A stretch of 42,109 nt of DNA, from contig JAYENL010000088.1 of NCBI GenBank assembly GCA_034722055.1, forward strand, positions 1 through 42,109, written 5' to 3'. A program made the translations under genes and the position numbers. The notes under the pieces were generated by a model that saw only the letters and a list, made by a program, of their open reading frames with translations, was not told the DNA's origin and searched no databases. Below are positions 593 to 10,930 of this stretch, piece after piece (within the stretch, counting starts at the first letter, position 1; each line of letters starts with the position of its first letter). The DNA comes from Armatimonadota bacterium (GTDB lineage Bacteria > Armatimonadota > Zipacnadia > Zipacnadales > UBA5352).

Positions 593-1198
593 ATGGGACG
601 GTTGATGTGGCTGGTGAGCGTGGTATCCGCCTGCGCGAGCGCGCTTGTGCTGGCGGCGGCCGACGTGGCCAACGCGGAGGTCGTATTCTCGGATGACTTT
701 GACGAGCCGCTCGGCGAGCGTTGGCAGGTGGTGCAGGGCACGTGGGAGGTTACGGAGGGAGAGCTCGTCCACCCGGACGCATCGGGGGCCCCGCACGCCC
801 GAGTGCTGGCGGGCATGGCCATCCGCGAGGGTGTCATCGAAGTTGATGCCACGCCGATGGAGCAGAACCGGTATCGCTTCGCCTCCGTGGGGCTGGTCGG
901 CAAGTACGTGGACGAGGAGCATCAGTGGTGGTTCCGCTTCGGCTCCTATGGAGCCATCAACATCGACGGGCGCATGCCGGGGGTCGATAAGATCCAGATC
1001 GGCTCGGTGCGACCCGAGTGCGGTCGGACCTATCGGCTCAAGATCGTGATGCGGGGCGGCCTGGTGGGCGTCTCGGTTGACGGAACCACCATGGCGATAT
1101 TCCGTGATCCCTTCGCCGACCTCGAGGGCCGCCCGGGTGTCTTCACCGAGACCCATGCCAGGTTCGACAACTTCACGGTCACGCGCAACGGGCAGTAG
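593..1198 (+). CDS. Secreted single-domain DUF1080/LamG-like (concanavalin-fold) protein
   Basis: GGAGG at 581-585 precedes ATG 593. Signal peptide ends ANA-EV. Motifs FSDDFD, W-x-V-x-x-G-x-W-x-V, G-x-x-G and FDNFTV are typical of the DUF1080/family-16-like fold. Confidence 0.75.
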   Translation: MGRLMWLVSVVSACASALVLAAADVANAEVVFSDDFDEPLGERWQVVQGTWEVTEGELVHPDASGAPHARVLAGMAIREGVIEVDATPMEQNRYRFASVGLVGKYVDEEHQWWFRFGSYGAINIDGRMPGVDKIQIGSVRPECGRTYRLKIVMRGGLVGVSVDGTTMAIFRDPFADLEGRPGVFTETHARFDNFTVTRNGQ

Positions 1199-1232
1199 TG
1201 CCCCTATCCTCAGATCGCAGGGGACCGGCGAG

Positions 1233-3854
1233 ATGAAGACGAGCCGCGTCATCAGTGTGGCGTTCTGCATCGCCCTGTCGGCCTGGGTCGGTCAGGGAGC
1301 GACGGCGGCGACGTGGAGCGATGACTTCGACGACGGCGACTTCGACGGATGGTTCGTCGCAGGTGGGGCCTGGGAGGTGATCGACGGGGCGCTGCATCAG
1401 ACCGCACCCGGGTGGGGGCGCCACTGTATCCTCCTGCGCAAGCGGCTGGACTCGGGCAGCATCTCTCTGCGGGCGATGGCGACGGCCAAGGCGGGCGACG
1501 AGGCGCCCTTCGACTGGGGGAGCTTCGGCGTCATCCTCAGGTTCCGCCGCGGCCAGGGCGCTACTAAGGTGCGCCTGGGGTCCTACGGCGGCGCGAGCCT
1601 GGACGGGCCGCCACAGGACGTTCCCCTGTGTCGTTTCAGCCCCGAGGTCGGCCGCTGGTACGAGGTCAGGGTGGAGCTGACGGCGGAGAGGGTCGTGCTG
1701 TGGATCGACGGGCAGAGGGTGGGCGAGACTGAGACGGAGATCGCGGCTGAGGACGGGTACATCGGCCTCTACGCCGAGAGCCAGGCCGCGTTCGATGATG
1801 TTGCGATCGATGGCGAGTGGGTGGACCTTGCGGCGGCGGACCCGCTGGCCGGCGGCAGCCCCGACTACGAGCTGGTGTGGGCGAACTGGCGCCCCGAGCG
1901 CGCCAACCCCATGCTGGCCATCCCGGTCACCGGCTCGATCTACCTCTACGTTCGCAACACCGGCGACGGGCACGGGGCGATCGAGTCCGCATCGGCTCTT
2001 GGCCGGCCGGCCGTCGGCGAAGCCAAGCCCGACTGGATCGCGTTCGTCCGGCAGCGGCCGATGTTCCTGGCCCCGGGCAGGCTGGGTCAGATCGAGATCC
2101 GCCTGCGGGGGGTCCCGGAAAAGGTGGGCAGCCGCCTGCTGGCGAGTCCCGACGACATGATCGACTGTGACGTGACGGTCAGCCCGGTGAGGGGGCGGCG
2201 CCTGAACGCTCGGGTCGCTCTTGGCGGCGCCTACGAGCCGGTGCAGGTCAACTTCTTCGGATTCTCCGAAGACCTCACGCGGATGTACGCCTACCTGCAG
2301 AACAACCGGGCGGTCTACGGCAGGGATGGCTCGACGTATACCATCAGCCGGGTGTGGGTTGACGGCGTGGAGGTGACGGACCAGACGCGCTTCGGGTCCC
2401 GGGTGCTGGCCTCAGATGTGGTGCCCCTTGAGGTCGCACTTCCCCGGCGCCTGCGCAGGGGCGAGGCCGTGGTGCTGCTTGTGGAGACGGAGGAGGGGCT
2501 GATGACGGGCCACCAGTTGCGGGCCTTCCCCTCCGAGTTCAACGTTCTCGTCTACACTGGCAAGCAGATTCCCCGCACGGACTGGCTGGAGGACATCGGG
2601 AATCACTGTGCGACGGCGGTGCCGCACCGAGCCGGGCCGGACGAGGTCTGGGACCGGTTCGGGTTCAAGCGCTTCCCGATGATCGGCCGCACGCCCAACT
2701 TCATATACCCCGCGGAGAGCTACGGCGGCGAGGACCTCCTGGCGATCTGGGTCGATGAGGTGGACAAGGCCTGGGGGCAGCCGGTCGAGAGGCACATGCA
2801 GTGGTTCTCGAAGGCCGAGGAGTACTTCCTGCTCGACGACAGACGGCTGCCGTGCCTGAGCTACAACTTCGTGTCACCGCAGGCCAGCTCCGCAAGCGGA
2901 CATCTCGTGGTCGGCGACACCGTCATGCACTCCTACGGCTACTTCATGTGCCCCGCCACCGGCGGCGACTTCGGCTACATCCAGCGGCTGCCCTACCGGG
3001 AGTTCCGCCTGGGACGGCGCCCCTTCTGGCCCTACTTCCGCGACGGCGAGATCCCCGTCCCCGTTGACCCCGACAGCCGGGAGGTGCTGCCGCTGGCGGA
3101 CCAGTTCCAGCGCTGCCTCACGCCGAAGGAGCAGCGCCGGATCACCTACGGGGTGCTCATGGAGGGCGCCAAGTCCATCGCTCACTGGGGCTACTGGGCC
3201 ACCGAAAAGACGGGGCACTACTACATCGATGGGCCGCTGGTGCGCACCGGCCTGGGGGCTCTGGCCGGCAACTGGGCGTGGGGGTACATCTACCCCGACG
3301 ATGTCGCGGGGATGCTCAAGGACAACTGGGATGAGATCGGGCGCCTCAACGCGGAGATGCGCACCGTCGGCCCCGAGCTGGCCATTGCCGACGTGTGCTA
3401 CCGGGCTGAAGTGACCAGGTGCGCGCCCGCTAGGGCGCCGAACGGCAAGCCGGCCGCAGCCGCCACCGCCCTCATCGCCGGCTGCGACACGATGATCCTC
3501 CTGGTCCTGAACCAGAACATCGACCTCGGGGAGTCCTTCGCCCCTACGGGTCCGCTGTCCAATCCCAACAGCCCCGTCTCGTACGAGCCTGTGGCGGTGG
3601 AGGTGGAGCTGTCGGTGCCCCACTGGCTGCGGCCAGCGTCGGTCTTCGGGGTGAGCCATCGGGGACTCGAGGACGTCGAGCCGCGAGATGACGGGAAGGG
3701 CGGGCTGGTGTTCACGTTCCCGGAGCTTTCGGTCTCCAGGATGATCGTCATCACCGCGGACCCGCGCCTGCGGGGGGAGTGCTCCGGGCGTCTGGCCAGG
3801 CTCCAGGAGCTGCTTGATGCCGCCGACCAACAGACGCCCATACGTGCACAGTAA
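1233..3854 (+). CDS. Secreted multidomain protein: N-terminal DUF1080-like domain, Ig-like middle, putative GH-A-like TIM-barrel
   Basis: ATG 1233 begins the signal peptide MKTSRVISVAFCIALSAW. WSDDFDDG...FDDVAID domain follows. C-terminal half has WVDEVD and EGAKSIAHWGY...WDEIGRLN motifs. Confidence 0.7.
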   Translation: MKTSRVISVAFCIALSAWVGQGATAATWSDDFDDGDFDGWFVAGGAWEVIDGALHQTAPGWGRHCILLRKRLDSGSISLRAMATAKAGDEAPFDWGSFGVILRFRRGQGATKVRLGSYGGASLDGPPQDVPLCRFSPEVGRWYEVRVELTAERVVLWIDGQRVGETETEIAAEDGYIGLYAESQAAFDDVAIDGEWVDLAAADPLAGGSPDYELVWANWRPERANPMLAIPVTGSIYLYVRNTGDGHGAIESASALGRPAVGEAKPDWIAFVRQRPMFLAPGRLGQIEIRLRGVPEKVGSRLLASPDDMIDCDVTVSPVRGRRLNARVALGGAYEPVQVNFFGFSEDLTRMYAYLQNNRAVYGRDGSTYTISRVWVDGVEVTDQTRFGSRVLASDVVPLEVALPRRLRRGEAVVLLVETEEGLMTGHQLRAFPSEFNVLVYTGKQIPRTDWLEDIGNHCATAVPHRAGPDEVWDRFGFKRFPMIGRTPNFIYPAESYGGEDLLAIWVDEVDKAWGQPVERHMQWFSKAEEYFLLDDRRLPCLSYNFVSPQASSASGHLVVGDTVMHSYGYFMCPATGGDFGYIQRLPYREFRLGRRPFWPYFRDGEIPVPVDPDSREVLPLADQFQRCLTPKEQRRITYGVLMEGAKSIAHWGYWATEKTGHYYIDGPLVRTGLGALAGNWAWGYIYPDDVAGMLKDNWDEIGRLNAEMRTVGPELAIADVCYRAEVTRCAPARAPNGKPAAAATALIAGCDTMILLVLNQNIDLGESFAPTGPLSNPNSPVSYEPVAVEVELSVPHWLRPASVFGVSHRGLEDVEPRDDGKGGLVFTFPELSVSRMIVITADPRLRGECSGRLARLQELLDAADQQTPIRAQ

Positions 3855-3929
3855 GTCCGCTCCTGACGAACACTGTTCCCGGAATGGATGGTCTCGGTTG
3901 CTGGGGATGTGGACGGTCTCCAGGGCGAA

Positions 3930-4027
3930 GTCCTGAGGGAGAGCGACGATATCCGGCCCCAGGTCAGTGTGCTCGCCTGAGTAGTATTCCTCGGCCGGGT
4001 GAACCTTGAGATCCCTCTGGCCTTCGG
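3930..4027 (-). pseudogene. Fragment of an alkaline-phosphatase-superfamily (COG3379-like) phosphohydrolase, interrupted by the MITE
   Basis: Minus frame reads EGQRDLKVHPAEEYYSGEHTDLGPDIVALPQD, matching the recalled V-x-x-x-EE-x-Y-x-G-x(4-5)-PD-[IL]V motif. The frame stays open across the empty site when 4028-4458 is removed. No convincing start and no full-length gene. Confidence 0.45.
4019..4027. repeat. Left 9-bp target-site duplication GGCCTTCGG
   Basis: Identical to 4450-4458 and directly abuts the left TIR. Confidence 0.9.
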
Positions 4028-4449
4028 CTACGCATTACGCACATCTTGAGAGAGGCCAGGCCTGTGATGGAGTTGACCACGCGCTCGGGCGTGTGTTGTT
4101 GTCGTACGGAGGGGCCGCCCGAGCGTAGCGATGGAGAAGCCAGTAGGCTTCTCTTAAGAGTTCGCTATCCGAACTCCAGGGTGCCGCCTGCGCGGTCGTA
4201 TTGCGCAGGTGGCAGGTTCCATCCCGGCCCGGCCGTTTGCCGTTCGCGCTCAGGAACGACATGGGCCGGGGTGGAACCTTCGGCCCTGGCGGGCCTCACT
4301 CCTCGCGCCGCCGGGGGCGGCGACGCTCGGAGCGGCCCCTCCATCACACGGCGTGCGGGCGAGGGCGCCCGCGCCACGGAAGTGAATGACCTGGCGGACA
4401 ACGCGGCCATTGGACTTCCGCGAGCGGGCAAGATGTGAGTAATGCATAG
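4028..4449. mobile_element. MITE / non-autonomous IS4-family (IS50/Tn5-like) element, 422 bp
   Basis: TIRs CTACGCATTACGCACATCTTG (4028-4048) and the reverse complement of 4429-4449, CTATGCATTACTCACATCTTG, match at 19/21. Flanked by a perfect 9-bp direct repeat. The ends match the Tn5 mosaic end CTGTCTCTTATACACATCT at 12/19 and 13/19. No transposase inside. Confidence 0.88.
4063..4374 (+). ncRNA. Putative structured RNA / folded interior of the MITE
   Basis: Long-range stem 4063-4072/4339-4348 encloses hairpins 4081-4126, 4134-4153, 4158-4176, 4183-4213, 4214-4279 and 4306-4322. A further hairpin lies at 4353-4374. Non-Watson-Crick positions in these stems are G-U on the + strand. Confidence 0.4.
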
Positions 4450-4458
4450 GGCCTTCGG
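4450..4458. repeat. Right 9-bp target-site duplication GGCCTTCGG
   Basis: Identical to 4019-4027 and directly abuts the right TIR. Confidence 0.9.
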
Positions 4459-4554: not shown

Positions 4555-7500
4555 TCAGTCGAAGAGCAGGTAGGCGCCGAGCACGGCACCGACCGCGTCA
4601 AGGACCCGGTCGAAGGTGCTTGGGCGCTGGAGCCTGCGGACCATGTAGTCCGAGGGAACGAGGATGATGTCCCCCGGCCTGATATCTGCCTTCAGCGCTT
4701 CAGCCTCCACTGCGCCATTGGCACGAATGACCACGGTCCGTCGCAGACGCGCATCCGGCGCCGGGCCTCCGGAGTTGTTGATGTAGTCCGTGGGCCTGAG
4801 GCTCTCTTTCCAGACCAGGGCACCTGGACGCACCACTGCTCCGAACACGGTGACTGTACTGGGCATCTCGGGAACCACGACCACGTCCCCGTGTGCGAGG
4901 TCGAAGTTGGCATCCTCCCCGTTGGTGGCGAGCATGCGCTCGCCGTCAATGGGAACTGCGCGAGCCCACGCCTGCTCGGTCAGCCTTCGTGGGGGGACAA
5001 TCATGGCTGATCCGCCTTCGGAGAATGCGGTTCTGAGGCCCTCGGCAACTCGCTGGGTAATGCCGGCCTCCCTCTGCTCCTCGCCCTTCACCGTCCTCGC
5101 CGCAAGCTCCCGGTTCAGGACAGCTATGACCTGGCGGAGGTCCTCCGACTGCTCCTCCCCAATGATCTCATCGCGCAGGCGGTAGAGGACGATGCCATTG
5201 GGATTGGCGTTGGGCAACAGCCCTCCCGCCCTCTGCACCAGATCGAACACGGTATCCGTCTCGTCCGGCCCCACCTGGAGGGCATAGGTTCCTGGCTTCG
5301 CCACCCTGCCACGGATGGTCACGGACTTCGGCCAGCCTATGAGGTCGCCCATCCCCAGGACGGTGACCAGGTCATTGTCTTCAAGCACCGGGTCGGGCTC
5401 GACGGTGAAGGTTGCCCCGTCGTGCTGGAGGCTGAGATAGATCGATTCCACCTCTGTCCTCGCACCGCCGGGAGTGTACTGCACCTGGTCTCCCGCGTTG
5501 GGCGCAAGGCCTCCGCCCGCGATCAGAGCGTCGGAGACGCGCATGCCCTCCAGGCGCGGGTACCGTCCCGGCTCGTTGACGTAGCCCTCCACCTCTATCT
5601 CGCTTGCGACCGTGACATCCGAACGCTGCAGGACGCGCAGCACATCGCCACGCTCAATCCGCAGATCCGCGCTCTGCTCGCCGTCCAATGCCTCTGCGAG
5701 CCGCACCGGGATGATCTCTCTGCGCTGGTCGGCGGTGAGCCTCTGCAGATCAGCTCGCCCGGTGTAAGCGCCCTCCAAAAGCCCACCGGTCTCGGTGATC
5801 AGATCGGAGACCCGCATTCCCTCCCTCCAGGGAACGATCCCGGGCCGGCGCACAGCGCCGGTGACCTCCACCTCCATGGGCGCCTCCGCCTGCTCCTCTG
5901 AGAGGATGACCACCTGGTCGCGTGGGCGCAGGGCCATATTCTCCTCCGCATCCCCCGACAGGGCCGCCCCGAGGTCGAAGCTGATGTGCTCGTAGTCCAA
6001 CTCCTCGTTGAGTCGCCAGAGCCACGCTCGCTCGATGTGGGCGTTCTCAGTGACCCCCTGCGCCCTGTCTAGCAGCTCCGCGACGGTCATCCCCTCCCGG
6101 AACTCGTAGTATCCCGGGCGGGCCACGGCACCATACAGCTCCACCGCGTTGTGAGGCTCCTCCAGCACGGGGGCCACGACGATGAGGTCGCCGGCGCGCG
6201 TCTGCAGCTCGCTTTCGGACTCCTCGAGTGCGTCCACATTGAGGAGATGGCGCCGGCCGGACTCGCCAACACGCCAGATCTGCAGCTTGCCTGCATGTCC
6301 GACGCTGGTGAGGCCGCCCGCCATTTCCAGCGCCTCCGCCACTGTGGTGGCATCCTCAAGCTCATAGCGGCCCGGCCTCTGCACCTCGCCGGTCAGGCCC
6401 ACGGTGGGGCCGGCCGGAGGTATGAACACGGTGTCATCGGGCTCGAGCAACACGTCGGCACTGGTATCTCCCTCCAGGAGGTAGTCGTAGAGGTCCACGG
6501 TCCGCGGCTCCTGCCCCCTGCGATGCAGCGTGATTCTGCGGAGGCTGCCGATCTCGCTGGGGCCGCCGGCGGCGTAGAGCGCCGAGAAGACGGTTGAGGC
6601 ACCGCTGAGTCTGTAGGTGCCCGGCCGCATGGCATCGCCCGTCACACGGACCTCGATCACCCGGGTCCGTGCCAATGCCACACTCACCTGGGCGCGGTCG
6701 AAATACTCGTGGTAGCGCTCCGTGAGCATCTCGCGGATCTCCCCCAGCGTCTTGCTGCCCACTGTCACCTCGCCCACCAGCTCGAGATAGATCTTGCCTT
6801 CGGCGTCAACCGTGGGCGTGACCGCGATGTGTTCCACGGCCTCCGTCCACACCCGCACGGCCAGCTCGTCGCCGGGCCCGATGATGTATGATGGGGGCAC
6901 AGCCTGGCCGGCGATGAGCTGCCCGCGCTCAGCCTCGTCTCGCCGCGAGATCCTCTCCGGAGCCTCTCGGGAGTCCCTCTCGGCTACCGCCTCCGCCTCA
7001 TCCTCCCGAGCTGCCTCCGCAGCGGCGAACACCTCCATGCCGAAGCGGGGAAGCTGCGCGAAGCGGTCGGCTGCGGAGGGCATGGGTGCGCCGGGCCGCG
7101 CCGGCTCCCGAGCTCCGTCGCCGAGGCCTCTCGCAGCCGGCGGACCGGCTGGGGGCGACGGTGGAGGCCACTGGCCGAACTCGGCGTCCGGGAGCGCGTA
7201 TCGCTCCAGGGTCAACCGCTCGGGGAGCCGTCCGGTGCCCTCGTGGAAGGCGAGAGAGCAGCGGCGCAGCCAGCTCGGCGGCTGATTCGCAACAGCTTCC
7301 GGCGCCCAACCTGGCAGCAGGTACACGCCCCAATGGTCGGCTGCGTCCAGATCGCCGGAGAAGCTGAGTGCCACGCTGCCGTCCGGGAGCATGACGTTCG
7401 GTGACAGGGAGAGCATCAGGTAGGGGCTCTGCGCGTGAGGCCTCGTGGCGCGGAATGCCCTGTCTCCGACGGTCACCGTGAGCTCCTCCACAGGCGGTTG

Positions 7501-7644
7501 CGTCCTGATCACCAGCAGGGCGCTCTCCAGGGCGCCCTCCGCCTGGGCGGTCTCACCCACCGGCTGGGCCAAGGCGACCTGCCCCATCGCCAGCAGCAAC
7601 GATAGAATAAGGAGACTCCGCTGCGCTCCGCCGTGCTGCATCAT
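4555..7644 (-). CDS. Polysaccharide export protein (Wza/KpsD-like, Poly_export domain plus 7 SLBB repeats)
   Basis: GGAGG upstream of ATG 7644 and a signal peptide. YIIGPGDEL...VDAEGKI Poly_export motif, followed by seven G-x-V/A-x-x-PG repeats (VTGDAMRPG, LTGEVQRPG, LYGAVARPG, VTGAVRRPG, VEGYVNEPG, IRGRVAKPG, VFGAVVRPG). Confidence 0.9.
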   Translation of the reverse strand: MMQHGGAQRSLLILSLLLAMGQVALAQPVGETAQAEGALESALLVIRTQPPVEELTVTVGDRAFRATRPHAQSPYLMLSLSPNVMLPDGSVALSFSGDLDAADHWGVYLLPGWAPEAVANQPPSWLRRCSLAFHEGTGRLPERLTLERYALPDAEFGQWPPPSPPAGPPAARGLGDGAREPARPGAPMPSAADRFAQLPRFGMEVFAAAEAAREDEAEAVAERDSREAPERISRRDEAERGQLIAGQAVPPSYIIGPGDELAVRVWTEAVEHIAVTPTVDAEGKIYLELVGEVTVGSKTLGEIREMLTERYHEYFDRAQVSVALARTRVIEVRVTGDAMRPGTYRLSGASTVFSALYAAGGPSEIGSLRRITLHRRGQEPRTVDLYDYLLEGDTSADVLLEPDDTVFIPPAGPTVGLTGEVQRPGRYELEDATTVAEALEMAGGLTSVGHAGKLQIWRVGESGRRHLLNVDALEESESELQTRAGDLIVVAPVLEEPHNAVELYGAVARPGYYEFREGMTVAELLDRAQGVTENAHIERAWLWRLNEELDYEHISFDLGAALSGDAEENMALRPRDQVVILSEEQAEAPMEVEVTGAVRRPGIVPWREGMRVSDLITETGGLLEGAYTGRADLQRLTADQRREIIPVRLAEALDGEQSADLRIERGDVLRVLQRSDVTVASEIEVEGYVNEPGRYPRLEGMRVSDALIAGGGLAPNAGDQVQYTPGGARTEVESIYLSLQHDGATFTVEPDPVLEDNDLVTVLGMGDLIGWPKSVTIRGRVAKPGTYALQVGPDETDTVFDLVQRAGGLLPNANPNGIVLYRLRDEIIGEEQSEDLRQVIAVLNRELAARTVKGEEQREAGITQRVAEGLRTAFSEGGSAMIVPPRRLTEQAWARAVPIDGERMLATNGEDANFDLAHGDVVVVPEMPSTVTVFGAVVRPGALVWKESLRPTDYINNSGGPAPDARLRRTVVIRANGAVEAEALKADIRPGDIILVPSDYMVRRLQRPSTFDRVLDAVGAVLGAYLLFD

Positions 7645-7917
7645 GACCTTTCCTCCGATGACGGATGTACCCATCCGCCGAGACGTCCGCGTTGATTCCG
7701 CCATTTCAGATGCCGCCCACGCCCGTGCGCACCCGGCACTGGCGTCCCCGCGACGGTGTCGTCCTCGCGAGAGAGCTGGGCCCCCCCGCCACCGAGTGCG
7801 GCGGTCGTCAGCATCCGGCGACCTCGGAAGTGACCACAGGCAAGCACTGGCCGAAGGGCGAGGGCGAGCTGGAGGCTTCAGCCTGGTGCTGATGAAACGA
7901 TGCTCCTGCAGGGAAGG

Positions 7918-9381
7918 CTATTGATCCGCGGCGTCCTCGCCCGCACGCGCGGCGTCGATCCTGGCCTGGCGCCAGAAGGCCAGGAGACCGGCGACCGCGA
8001 GCGAGACGAGGGAGGCGGCGGCAAGCACGTTCCTCAGCTTCGGCCCGCTGGGCTTACTGGGAGGCACCGGCTCGTCGAGCACGGTGAAGGCGGGGCCGGT
8101 GCTGGCCTCGAGCACCCGAGCCGCCTCGTAGTCCGCGGTGAGTCTGGCAACGGCCTCGGTCTTCTGACTCACCTGCCGCTGCAGGCGCTCGTATCGAGCC
8201 GACCTGGAAGGCAACTGTCTGAGCTCTCCCAGCGCTGCCTGCTTCTGGCTGCGGACGGTCTCAATCTTCGCCTCTATCTCCGAGACCTGCAGACGACTCG
8301 CCACAGCGTCGCTCGCCAGCTCGCCATAGCCGGGATCCATGGTCAGCGTCTTGCTCTGAGTCTGCATCTCGGCTGTGAGCTGCTCGGCCAGTTGAGCCTC
8401 CGCCTTGTCGAGCTGAGATCGCAGGGAGGCCACGTCAGGATGCTTCTCGGACTTGCCCCGCACCTCGGTCTGCTCGGCGATCTGCTGCTGCAGGGTGACT
8501 ATGCGCTGACGGAGGTGGTCTATCTGCGGATTGCGCTGCTCGGTAACGCTGGAGACGACCATGCGGTCCTGGCTCCTGAGGCGGCTCAAGGCCGTCTCCT
8601 CACGCTCCCGCGCGCCATCCAGCTCGATCTGTAGCTCAGTTTCGCGTTTGCGCCACTCGTTCAGATTGCCAACTGCGGCCTGTTGGTGAGCGGAGGGGCT
8701 CACGAACAGCTCGCTGGTGGCGTACTCCAGCAGCTCATCCTCCGCCTCTCGCAGCTCCTTCCGTGCTCGCTGGAGCTGCTCCTCAAGCAAGCGGCGGCGC
8801 CGGGCGGCCTCCGTGTAGTCCTTCTCGCGAAGCAGCTCATCCAGGCTGTCGATCATGGCTTGCGCGATGGCGGCTGCGAGCTCTGGGGCCTCCTCCGCCT
8901 CCGGGTCCGTGTACGCCTTCGGCCTGCCAGGCCACTGAGCCCGCAGCACAAGTGTCCCCTCAACCGGAAGGTCGATGCGGTACTGCTCTGCGAGCCTGTT
9001 GATAGCCTCAGCTCGGCTCTCGACCTCGAACTTCTGCACCAGGTTCAGCTCATCCACGACCTCCCCGCGGATCCTGCGGCTCTCAAGCATCACGCGCAAC
9101 AGATCGCCTCTGGAAGTCGAGCGTGCCAGGGCTACCTCCGGCAACTGCCCCGCCCAGGACGGAATACCTATGCCTGTGTGCTCGAAGATGATGGAGGCCG
9201 TGGCGACCCACGTGTTGGGGACAAGAAGCACAGTGACGAGACCAACCGCCAGCGTCGCGGCCAAAGCGAATGAAGCGATGAGCACCCACTGCTTCTTGAG
9301 GGTACCGACGATCTCTGCGAGTGAAATGGACTCCATGATCCACGGTCCCAGCGCCGACGGGCGCTCATCTGATACGGGCAT
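7918..9381 (-). CDS. Polysaccharide co-polymerase / chain-length determinant (Wzc/GumC-like, no tyrosine-kinase domain)
   Basis: N-terminal TM helix followed by P-x-x-W-x-A-T-A-S-I, a long coiled coil containing KHPDV, and the Pro-rich VLDEPVPPSKPSGPK before the C-terminal TM helix. The start may be 9336. Confidence 0.88.
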   Translation of the reverse strand: MPVSDERPSALGPWIMESISLAEIVGTLKKQWVLIASFALAATLAVGLVTVLLVPNTWVATASIIFEHTGIGIPSWAGQLPEVALARSTSRGDLLRVMLESRRIRGEVVDELNLVQKFEVESRAEAINRLAEQYRIDLPVEGTLVLRAQWPGRPKAYTDPEAEEAPELAAAIAQAMIDSLDELLREKDYTEAARRRRLLEEQLQRARKELREAEDELLEYATSELFVSPSAHQQAAVGNLNEWRKRETELQIELDGAREREETALSRLRSQDRMVVSSVTEQRNPQIDHLRQRIVTLQQQIAEQTEVRGKSEKHPDVASLRSQLDKAEAQLAEQLTAEMQTQSKTLTMDPGYGELASDAVASRLQVSEIEAKIETVRSQKQAALGELRQLPSRSARYERLQRQVSQKTEAVARLTADYEAARVLEASTGPAFTVLDEPVPPSKPSGPKLRNVLAAASLVSLAVAGLLAFWRQARIDAARAGEDAADQ

Positions 9382-10700: not shown

Positions 10701-10800
10701 TGCAGGTCACTCCCTCCGCAGGCCTCTGGATGGGCCGCCGGTCGAGTCACTGCCGAACAGCGCGGCTCGTCAACTGGTCCCCCCTGTTGCTGATCTCATC

Positions 10801-10930
10801 TGGCGTCGTCTGTCGTTACCTGCCGTTGTCTGCTGTTATCTGCCGTTGTCTGCCGTTGTCTGCTGTTATCTGCCGTTATCTGCCGTTATCTGCTGTTATC
10901 TGCCGTTATCTGGCGTTCCCTGCTGTTCCC
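10801..10930. repeat. Tandem array of 13 x 10-bp units (consensus TGCYGTTRTC) with a 30-bp higher-order period
   Basis: Nine clean units at 10821-10910 with degenerate units on both sides. The TGCTG variant recurs at 10831, 10861, 10891 and 10921. Confidence 0.95.

Follow-up and report, generated by a model that had tools for sequence, protein, structure and literature searches.

Tn5 is a widely used enzyme that is valued for near-random insertion. Among natural elements, the closest described relatives of the one considered here are those of subgroup IS50, for which Table 1 of a 2008 survey (PMC2266710) gives an end pattern with conserved positions 1, 2, 9, 13, 14, 16, and 19; the accessible part of the same source gives a direct repeat of 8–9 bp and places the subgroup mostly in proteobacteria, whereas the host here belongs to the Armatimonadota. 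A second IS4-family element that bears on the comparison is ISRm22 of Sinorhizobium meliloti (subgroup IS4Sa), which, according to the available portions of PMC1525189 and PMC2266710, inserts at the axis of REP palindromes. MITEs are described as common in prokaryotes, and the features given for them in the available text of PMC10969869 and PMC11602168 are all shared by our element: they are short, noncoding, intergenic, and multicopy, with inverted ends, a target duplication, and a highly structured fold. No mention of an IS4- or IS50-linked MITE was found in the available text of either paper.

The window analyzed here is the whole 42,109-nt stretch of contig JAYENL010000088.1 from an Armatimonadota bacterium (assembly GCA_034722055.1, hereafter G000). 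It carries a 422-bp element that is very probably an IS50-subgroup MITE, likely moved in trans by a Tn5-like transposase of the Armatimonadota. A 9-mer at positions 4019–4027 recurs exactly at 4450–4458 (9/9) as a 9-bp target-site duplication, and between these copies lie 21-nt terminal inverted repeats (4028–4048 and 4429–4449) that are complementary at 19 of 21 positions (90%), with mismatches at positions 4 and 12 and 380 nt between the arms. Coordinates and arm comparison thus confirm the duplication and the inverted ends described in the initial annotation. Both ends fit 7/7 of the conserved positions of subgroup IS50 when checked by eye against Table 1 of PMC2266710, and the element is like IS50/Tn5 (PMC2266710, in the part available; PDB 1MUS) in end pattern and in duplication, which is 8–10 bp across the end pairs of the two families described below. 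It is unlike IS50/Tn5 in that the window copy has no transposase and in that its two ends agree with the Tn5 mosaic end at no more than 12/19 and 13/19 positions, figures of the initial annotation that a count by eye against the oligonucleotide of PMC4248319 bears out. The longest interior ORF (4046–4438, 130 aa), the sole one scanned, has no Pfam match, and none of the shorter overlapping ORFs is large enough for a transposase of ~460 aa, in agreement with the earlier statement that no transposase lies between the ends. The element sits between two convergent genes, a 925-aa ORF on the left (1077–3854, plus strand) and an SLBB/Poly_export gene on the right (7704–4555, minus strand). Its features are as follows.

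4019–4027, no strand: left copy of the target-site duplication, 9 bp (9/9)
4028–4048, plus strand: left terminal inverted repeat with the IS50-subgroup pattern; full-IS ends in relatives match it at 16–20 of 21 positions
4049–4100, plus strand: left subterminal segment common to family A copies, from an alignment of 9 paired copies
4101–4109, plus strand: family B insertion site, seen in other copies and empty in the window copy
4108–4343, no strand: structured core, with an outer stem (about 4108–4125 with 4325–4343) enclosing several hairpins in predicted RNA and DNA folds
4131–4177, no strand: optional module of 47 nt with two hairpins, carried by 4 of the 9 copies aligned
4214–4279, no strand: REP-like inverted pair, arms 4214–4230 and 4263–4279
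4347–4374, no strand: 28-nt hairpin of another abundant repeat (94 matches for 4354–4372)
4380–4428, plus strand: right subterminal segment, with weak likeness to the 3' end of an IS50-like transposase gene
4429–4449, minus strand: right terminal inverted repeat; the corresponding end of full IS closes with the three bases of the transposase stop codon
4450–4458, no strand: right copy of the target-site duplication
Contigs C219 (15705–15957) and C187 (about 3217–3450) of G000: nested family B copies

Further copies with different 9-bp flanks, as the initial annotation had predicted, were found in the source assembly, which is 92.7% complete and in 330 contigs. Ends matching at least 17 of 21 positions number 27 in G000 and 0 in a reversed-genome control (44 and 2, respectively, at ≥16/21); because ends were counted by mismatches, the copy counts are lower bounds. 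BLAST with the element returns 94 loci on 70 contigs, many of them interior repeats only. At duplication thresholds of ≥7/9, ≥7/8, or ≥8/10, seven of ten end pairs of family A, to which the window copy belongs, carry their own 9–10-bp duplication, different at each site, and 16 of 452 mismatched pairings pass as a control; one of the three failing pairs is a spurious second pairing. When the left and right flanks of 12 end pairs are mismatched, 0 of 126 pairings reach 9/9 and 1 of 126 reaches 8/9. The nine aligned family A copies span 238–422 bp and are 69–93% identical to the window copy, the nearest full sibling being 93% identical. Both subterminal segments are common to them and the modules differ: contig joints that skip the 47-nt module (4130 to 4178) are present in sequencing runs X2–X4, and the 28-nt hairpin, which has a 5-nt direct repeat beside it (4347–4351 and 4375–4379), occurs in one of the nine copies, that of the window, and also in a partial copy on contig C76. 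Judged by its ends, flanks, and relatives, the 422-bp stretch belongs to a set of diverged, gene-less copies that number a dozen or more. In a genome of another genus of the family (G017), a 354-bp element (L013 1419–1772) has the same end type and an 8/10 duplication, features by which it is a putative MITE of the same helper class.

A sister family, B, has related but distinct ends and an interior of its own. Its copies are 177–256 bp long, many of its ends lie near contig breaks, and 12 of 12 pairs carry duplications. On C219 and C187, a B copy sits inside a family A copy at the site equal to window 4101–4109, and the 9 bp of this site are duplicated on both sides of B; on C76 and C195, a B end adjoins the same internal site. 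Unlike MITEs in general, the element family carries REP-like cargo and hosts nested sister copies.

Full IS with related ends are found in other Armatimonadota. These elements are 1,466–1,473 bp long and encode a single-ORF transposase, which fits the 1,350–1,550-bp IS50 class. The ends of L017 (1,466 bp, 8/8 duplication) match the MITE ends at 18 and 20 of 21 positions and those of L020 (1,471 bp) at 17 and 18. A metagenome scan added six loci (L105–L110), all with A-type ends, whose hosts we infer to be Armatimonadota. Seven full IS have A-type ends and both flanks (L017, L020, L105, L106, L107, L109, and L110), and in three of these the duplication is perfect; L105 and L106 have 9/9 each, probably at one site, and the duplication is imperfect or absent at L020, L107, L109, and L110, as would be expected where multicopy flanks are mixed in assembly or recombined. 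The transposases match PF14706 and PF02281, score 401–421 bits against NF033590 (cut-off 160), match Tn5 transposase structures at E 3e-39, and keep D94, D191, and Y323-R326-E330-K337 (DDE/YREK), so that the 1.47-kb autonomous relatives, too, are alike to IS50/Tn5. In several full IS, the stop codon is formed by the last three bases of the right end. PF14706 is present in 7 of 67 genomes of the order, and the L020 protein is matched in 5 of 18 genomes of the family. Across a wider set of 86 loci (L025–L110), 28 automatic end-plus-duplication calls, a few of them doubtful, comprise 14 duplications of 9 bp, 11 of 10 bp, and 3 of 8 bp, and IS50-like elements from several other phyla have comparable ends. 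Because many of the 86 loci have similar ends, the MITE end sequence is typical of the wider IS50 subgroup. At L107 (357–1949), four ends lie close together around a full IS at 449–1919: one more end is located 92 bp upstream of the IS, and another, pointing away from it, stands exactly 9 bp beyond its right end.

The initial annotation had anticipated an IS50-subgroup transposase gene bounded by the same ends. Such genes, bounded by nearly the same ends, are present in relatives, but none was found in the G000 assembly. A PF14706 profile search of G000 found none, with the control positive in 2 of 14 genomes; a PF02281 search of G000 also found none and is uninformative because the control genomes gave none either. 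Searches of G000 by tblastn and blastn with seven related IS, together with a protein search, detected neither an IS50-type transposase nor a fragment of one. Among candidate helpers, the four PF01609 loci of G000 were rejected because their ends do not match (15/21 and 14/21 at best, unpaired). A contig from runs X1–X4 that carries a full-length related transposase (found by comparison of the runs with L109 at 80%) was likewise rejected: its end looks L023-like, and it is absent from G000. Ends of the L018/L023 type have 0 matches in G000. In each of the four runs, this contig is roughly two times as deep as the flanks of the element in the window. Either the assembly lacks the helper IS or the genome has already lost it. 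As to the origin of the MITE, blastn of the element against the full IS gives no match, and the likeness of the subterminal segment to the 3' end of the IS transposase gene reaches z 4.1 at the level of the set (1.2–2.8 in the other three comparisons), with no signal for the window copy alone. Because this subterminal homology is weak, descent of the MITE from an IS by internal deletion is not established. The annotated idea of a MITE mobilized in trans by a Tn5-like transposase is nevertheless supported by the multicopy ends and by the cognate-type IS of relatives, and it is from these sequence comparisons that we infer mobility.

The left flank of the element records an earlier event at this locus. 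Positions 3873–4025 (minus strand) hold a 51-codon gene relic that is 80% identical to residues 425–475 of a 583-aa protein of genome G001 and that is cut off inside the left target duplication. The intact G001 counterpart (L006 141–1889) has no NCBIfam match; we take the protein to resemble a phosphodiesterase/nucleotide pyrophosphatase. In G000, the relatives of the relic gene are distant paralogues only (27–34%). Since the gene left as a relic in this flank is complete in G001, the element stands at an older rearrangement junction. The empty sites expected by the initial annotation were not seen in G001, where the left flank matches a different, intact gene rather than an empty allele, and where unrelated sequence follows the orthologue of the right-hand gene, the locus being noncollinear and the element absent. 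Nor do runs X1–X4, which come from one study and possibly from the source sample, contain a joint across the element in their contigs, a form of the data from which rare alleles are dropped. Because there is no such transposase in the assembly and no empty site was found, the recent insertion suggested earlier is unproven, and the family copies are as diverged from the window copy as given above. The perfect 9-mer is compatible with some age. Cut-and-paste transposition need not leave an identical sibling. On the right-hand side (window 4555–9381 against L128), an ORF that reads as flippase-like comes next in G001 after the genes for Wzz-like and SLBB polysaccharide-export proteins. In G000, these genes are succeeded by the MITE, then the gene relic, then an unrelated gene in convergent orientation, an order that suggests a rearranged locus.

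The interior of the element invites two other readings. One is that the whole element is a REPIN/BIME-like unit spread by a RAYT (Y1) enzyme, with the IS50-like ends as incidental relics, and we consider it exceedingly improbable. It has in its favor that the 17-mer at 4262–4278 has 185 matches in G000 with ≤1 mismatch (control, 0), that 130 of 224 looser matches have an inverted partner within 200 bp, and that the motif occurs four times around a RAYT gene, two on each side (L112 1008–2268, on contig C193 of G000). The 198-aa frame of that gene scores 92 bits against NF047646 (cut-off 80), and by these features L112 is a REPtron-like locus for the repeat inside the MITE; matches to the element in relatives also lie mostly in the REP-like interior. 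With REP/BIME/REPIN systems and their RAYT (REPtron), the element has in common an abundant short repeat, which is present as an inverted pair and is also found around a RAYT gene. However, only ~66 bp of the interior belong to the REP part, which is incomplete in two aligned copies, and family B has related ends with a different interior. The copy boundaries are not set by the REP pair without a long duplication but are IS50-type ends with site-specific, DDE-type duplications of 9–10 bp, and to our knowledge HUH/Y1 enzymes make no such duplications. RAYT may explain the cargo, not the element, and the RAYT account of the whole element is largely refuted. A structured noncoding RNA or a bidirectional terminator between the convergent genes, whose mobile look would be secondary, is very unlikely as well. 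The location between two convergent ORF ends, one weak terminator-like stem at 4078–4095, and a very stable predicted RNA fold (z −10.4) are in line with such a role, but a fold of this strength is expected from nested inverted repeats and follows here from the nested hairpins. Moreover, an Rfam scan of the element gave nothing significant (best E 0.66; 19 bits, where the gathering score is 50), a promoter scan found no promoter-like site, the hairpins are gained and lost as modules among copies, and the element is absent downstream of the orthologous gene in G001.

Closer to the IS50-subgroup MITE that we favor, and compatible with it, is the reading that the element is a dead relic of MITE origin, its helper IS gone and its insertion old. 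The two differ only in present activity, and we would place the dead relic a little short of an even chance. The assembly without a helper, the siblings at 69–93% identity, several duplications decayed to 7/9 or 8/9, and the lack of an empty allele in the four runs all speak for loss of activity. On the other hand, the window copy has kept a perfect duplication and 19/21 ends. Multicopy IS are often missing from metagenome bins, and relatives show IS stubs at contig ends. A low-depth contig of run X1 also aligns across the left end of L109, although it is not assignable to the source organism.

If the favored MITE moves as Tn5 biochemistry suggests, a transposase dimer would bind both ends and excise the element, joining to the target would proceed through 9-bp staggered cuts, and repair would produce the duplication. 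The enzyme would prefer sites with a C-rich left arm and a G-rich right arm; the core of the element contains such a site, which could explain the insertion of sister MITEs there. Both the REP-like pair and the other hairpins would be passengers from the repeat pool of the genome.

The flanks of the insertions carry a marked bias of this kind. An excess of C is seen 13 bp outside the end in 26 of 35 family A flanks and 39 of 51 family B flanks, and at 14 sites with a 9-bp duplication, there is a C four bases to the left in 13 and a G four bases to the right in 12, against a background of 35%. At positions −16 to −11, counted after look-alike flanks had been removed, C exceeds G by 18 flanks to 1 for MITE A (p 8e-5), 22 to 8 for MITE B (p 0.016), 9 to 0 for full IS with A-type ends (p 0.004), and 7 to 0 for full IS with other ends (p 0.016). 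Four control intervals further out show no C/G skew. Because the −16 to −11 interval was chosen after the G000 flanks had been examined, only the IS ends of relatives are an independent test. The C-rich stretch 11–16 bp outside both MITE and full-IS ends points to an extended symmetric target preference. The same palindromic flank turns up beside IS ends of several relatives and beside B ends of G000. Other points speak against a strict targeting of repeats: symmetry of the G000 sites is modest (5.6 versus 4.5 of 16 pairs, p 0.013, n = 14), the insertion site in the window is unique sequence and no copy of a repeat, Tn5 itself favors GC-rich, loosely palindromic sites, and repeats could be enriched because insertions into genes are selected against. 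The bias 2–7 bp outside the duplication is marked here, whereas Tn5 is described in the available portions of PMC3292447 and PMC1525189 with a GC-rich, loosely palindromic 9-bp preference; this marked target bias is the part of the finding that stands apart from ordinary mobile DNA.

With ISRm22, as the accessible part of PMC1525189 describes it, the elements share an IS4-family DDE enzyme, target arms that are conserved on either side, and an inclination toward palindromic repeats. They differ in that ISRm22 lies in REPs in all copies and makes a 6-bp repeat, whereas the element here is of subgroup IS50, makes a 9-bp repeat, and has a looser preference in G000. A tentative extension, which we would sooner doubt than accept, is that this IS50 branch reads a symmetric target of ~21–23 bp and so homes on palindromic repeats, with MITEs that hold both such a target and a REP pair nesting in one another and spreading REP doublets by a DDE route. 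If true, it would amount to a naturally site-selective Tn5 relative with orthogonal ends; the more distant IS50-like elements treated below present a similar picture. A literature search, with subscription papers and ISfinder mostly outside its reach, found no IS50-derived MITE in Armatimonadota and no strong arm specificity in subgroup IS50, which is no proof of novelty.

As a MITE, the element is unremarkable; what makes it useful is that its copies record the insertion sites used by an uncharacterized clade of Tn5 relatives. With a natural relative that differs in its ends and has a stronger and more extended target preference, one could ask directly how target choice is determined in this fold, and an orthogonal pair of enzyme and ends might also result. 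Nesting and REP cargo further show how, in a little-studied phylum, one repeat family can carry another.

Outside the Armatimonadota, the clearest repeat targeting was seen in a Chthoniobacteraceae genome (L067–L077), where 8 of 8 copies of a 1,551-bp IS50-like element sit at the same point of one hairpin-like dispersed repeat, in either orientation. In Nodosilinea (L043, L045, and L048), 3 of 3 IS50-like copies have palindrome-like or recurrent flanks, and a weaker palindrome-like pattern is present in seven Ardenticatenaceae copies (L036–L044). The Ardenticatenaceae elements and several other IS50-like elements have duplications of 10 bp rather than 9 bp. Elsewhere in the window, at about 10790–10900, a short tandem repeat that encodes repeated peptide units in overlapping ORFs lies between an SPFH gene and the next gene.
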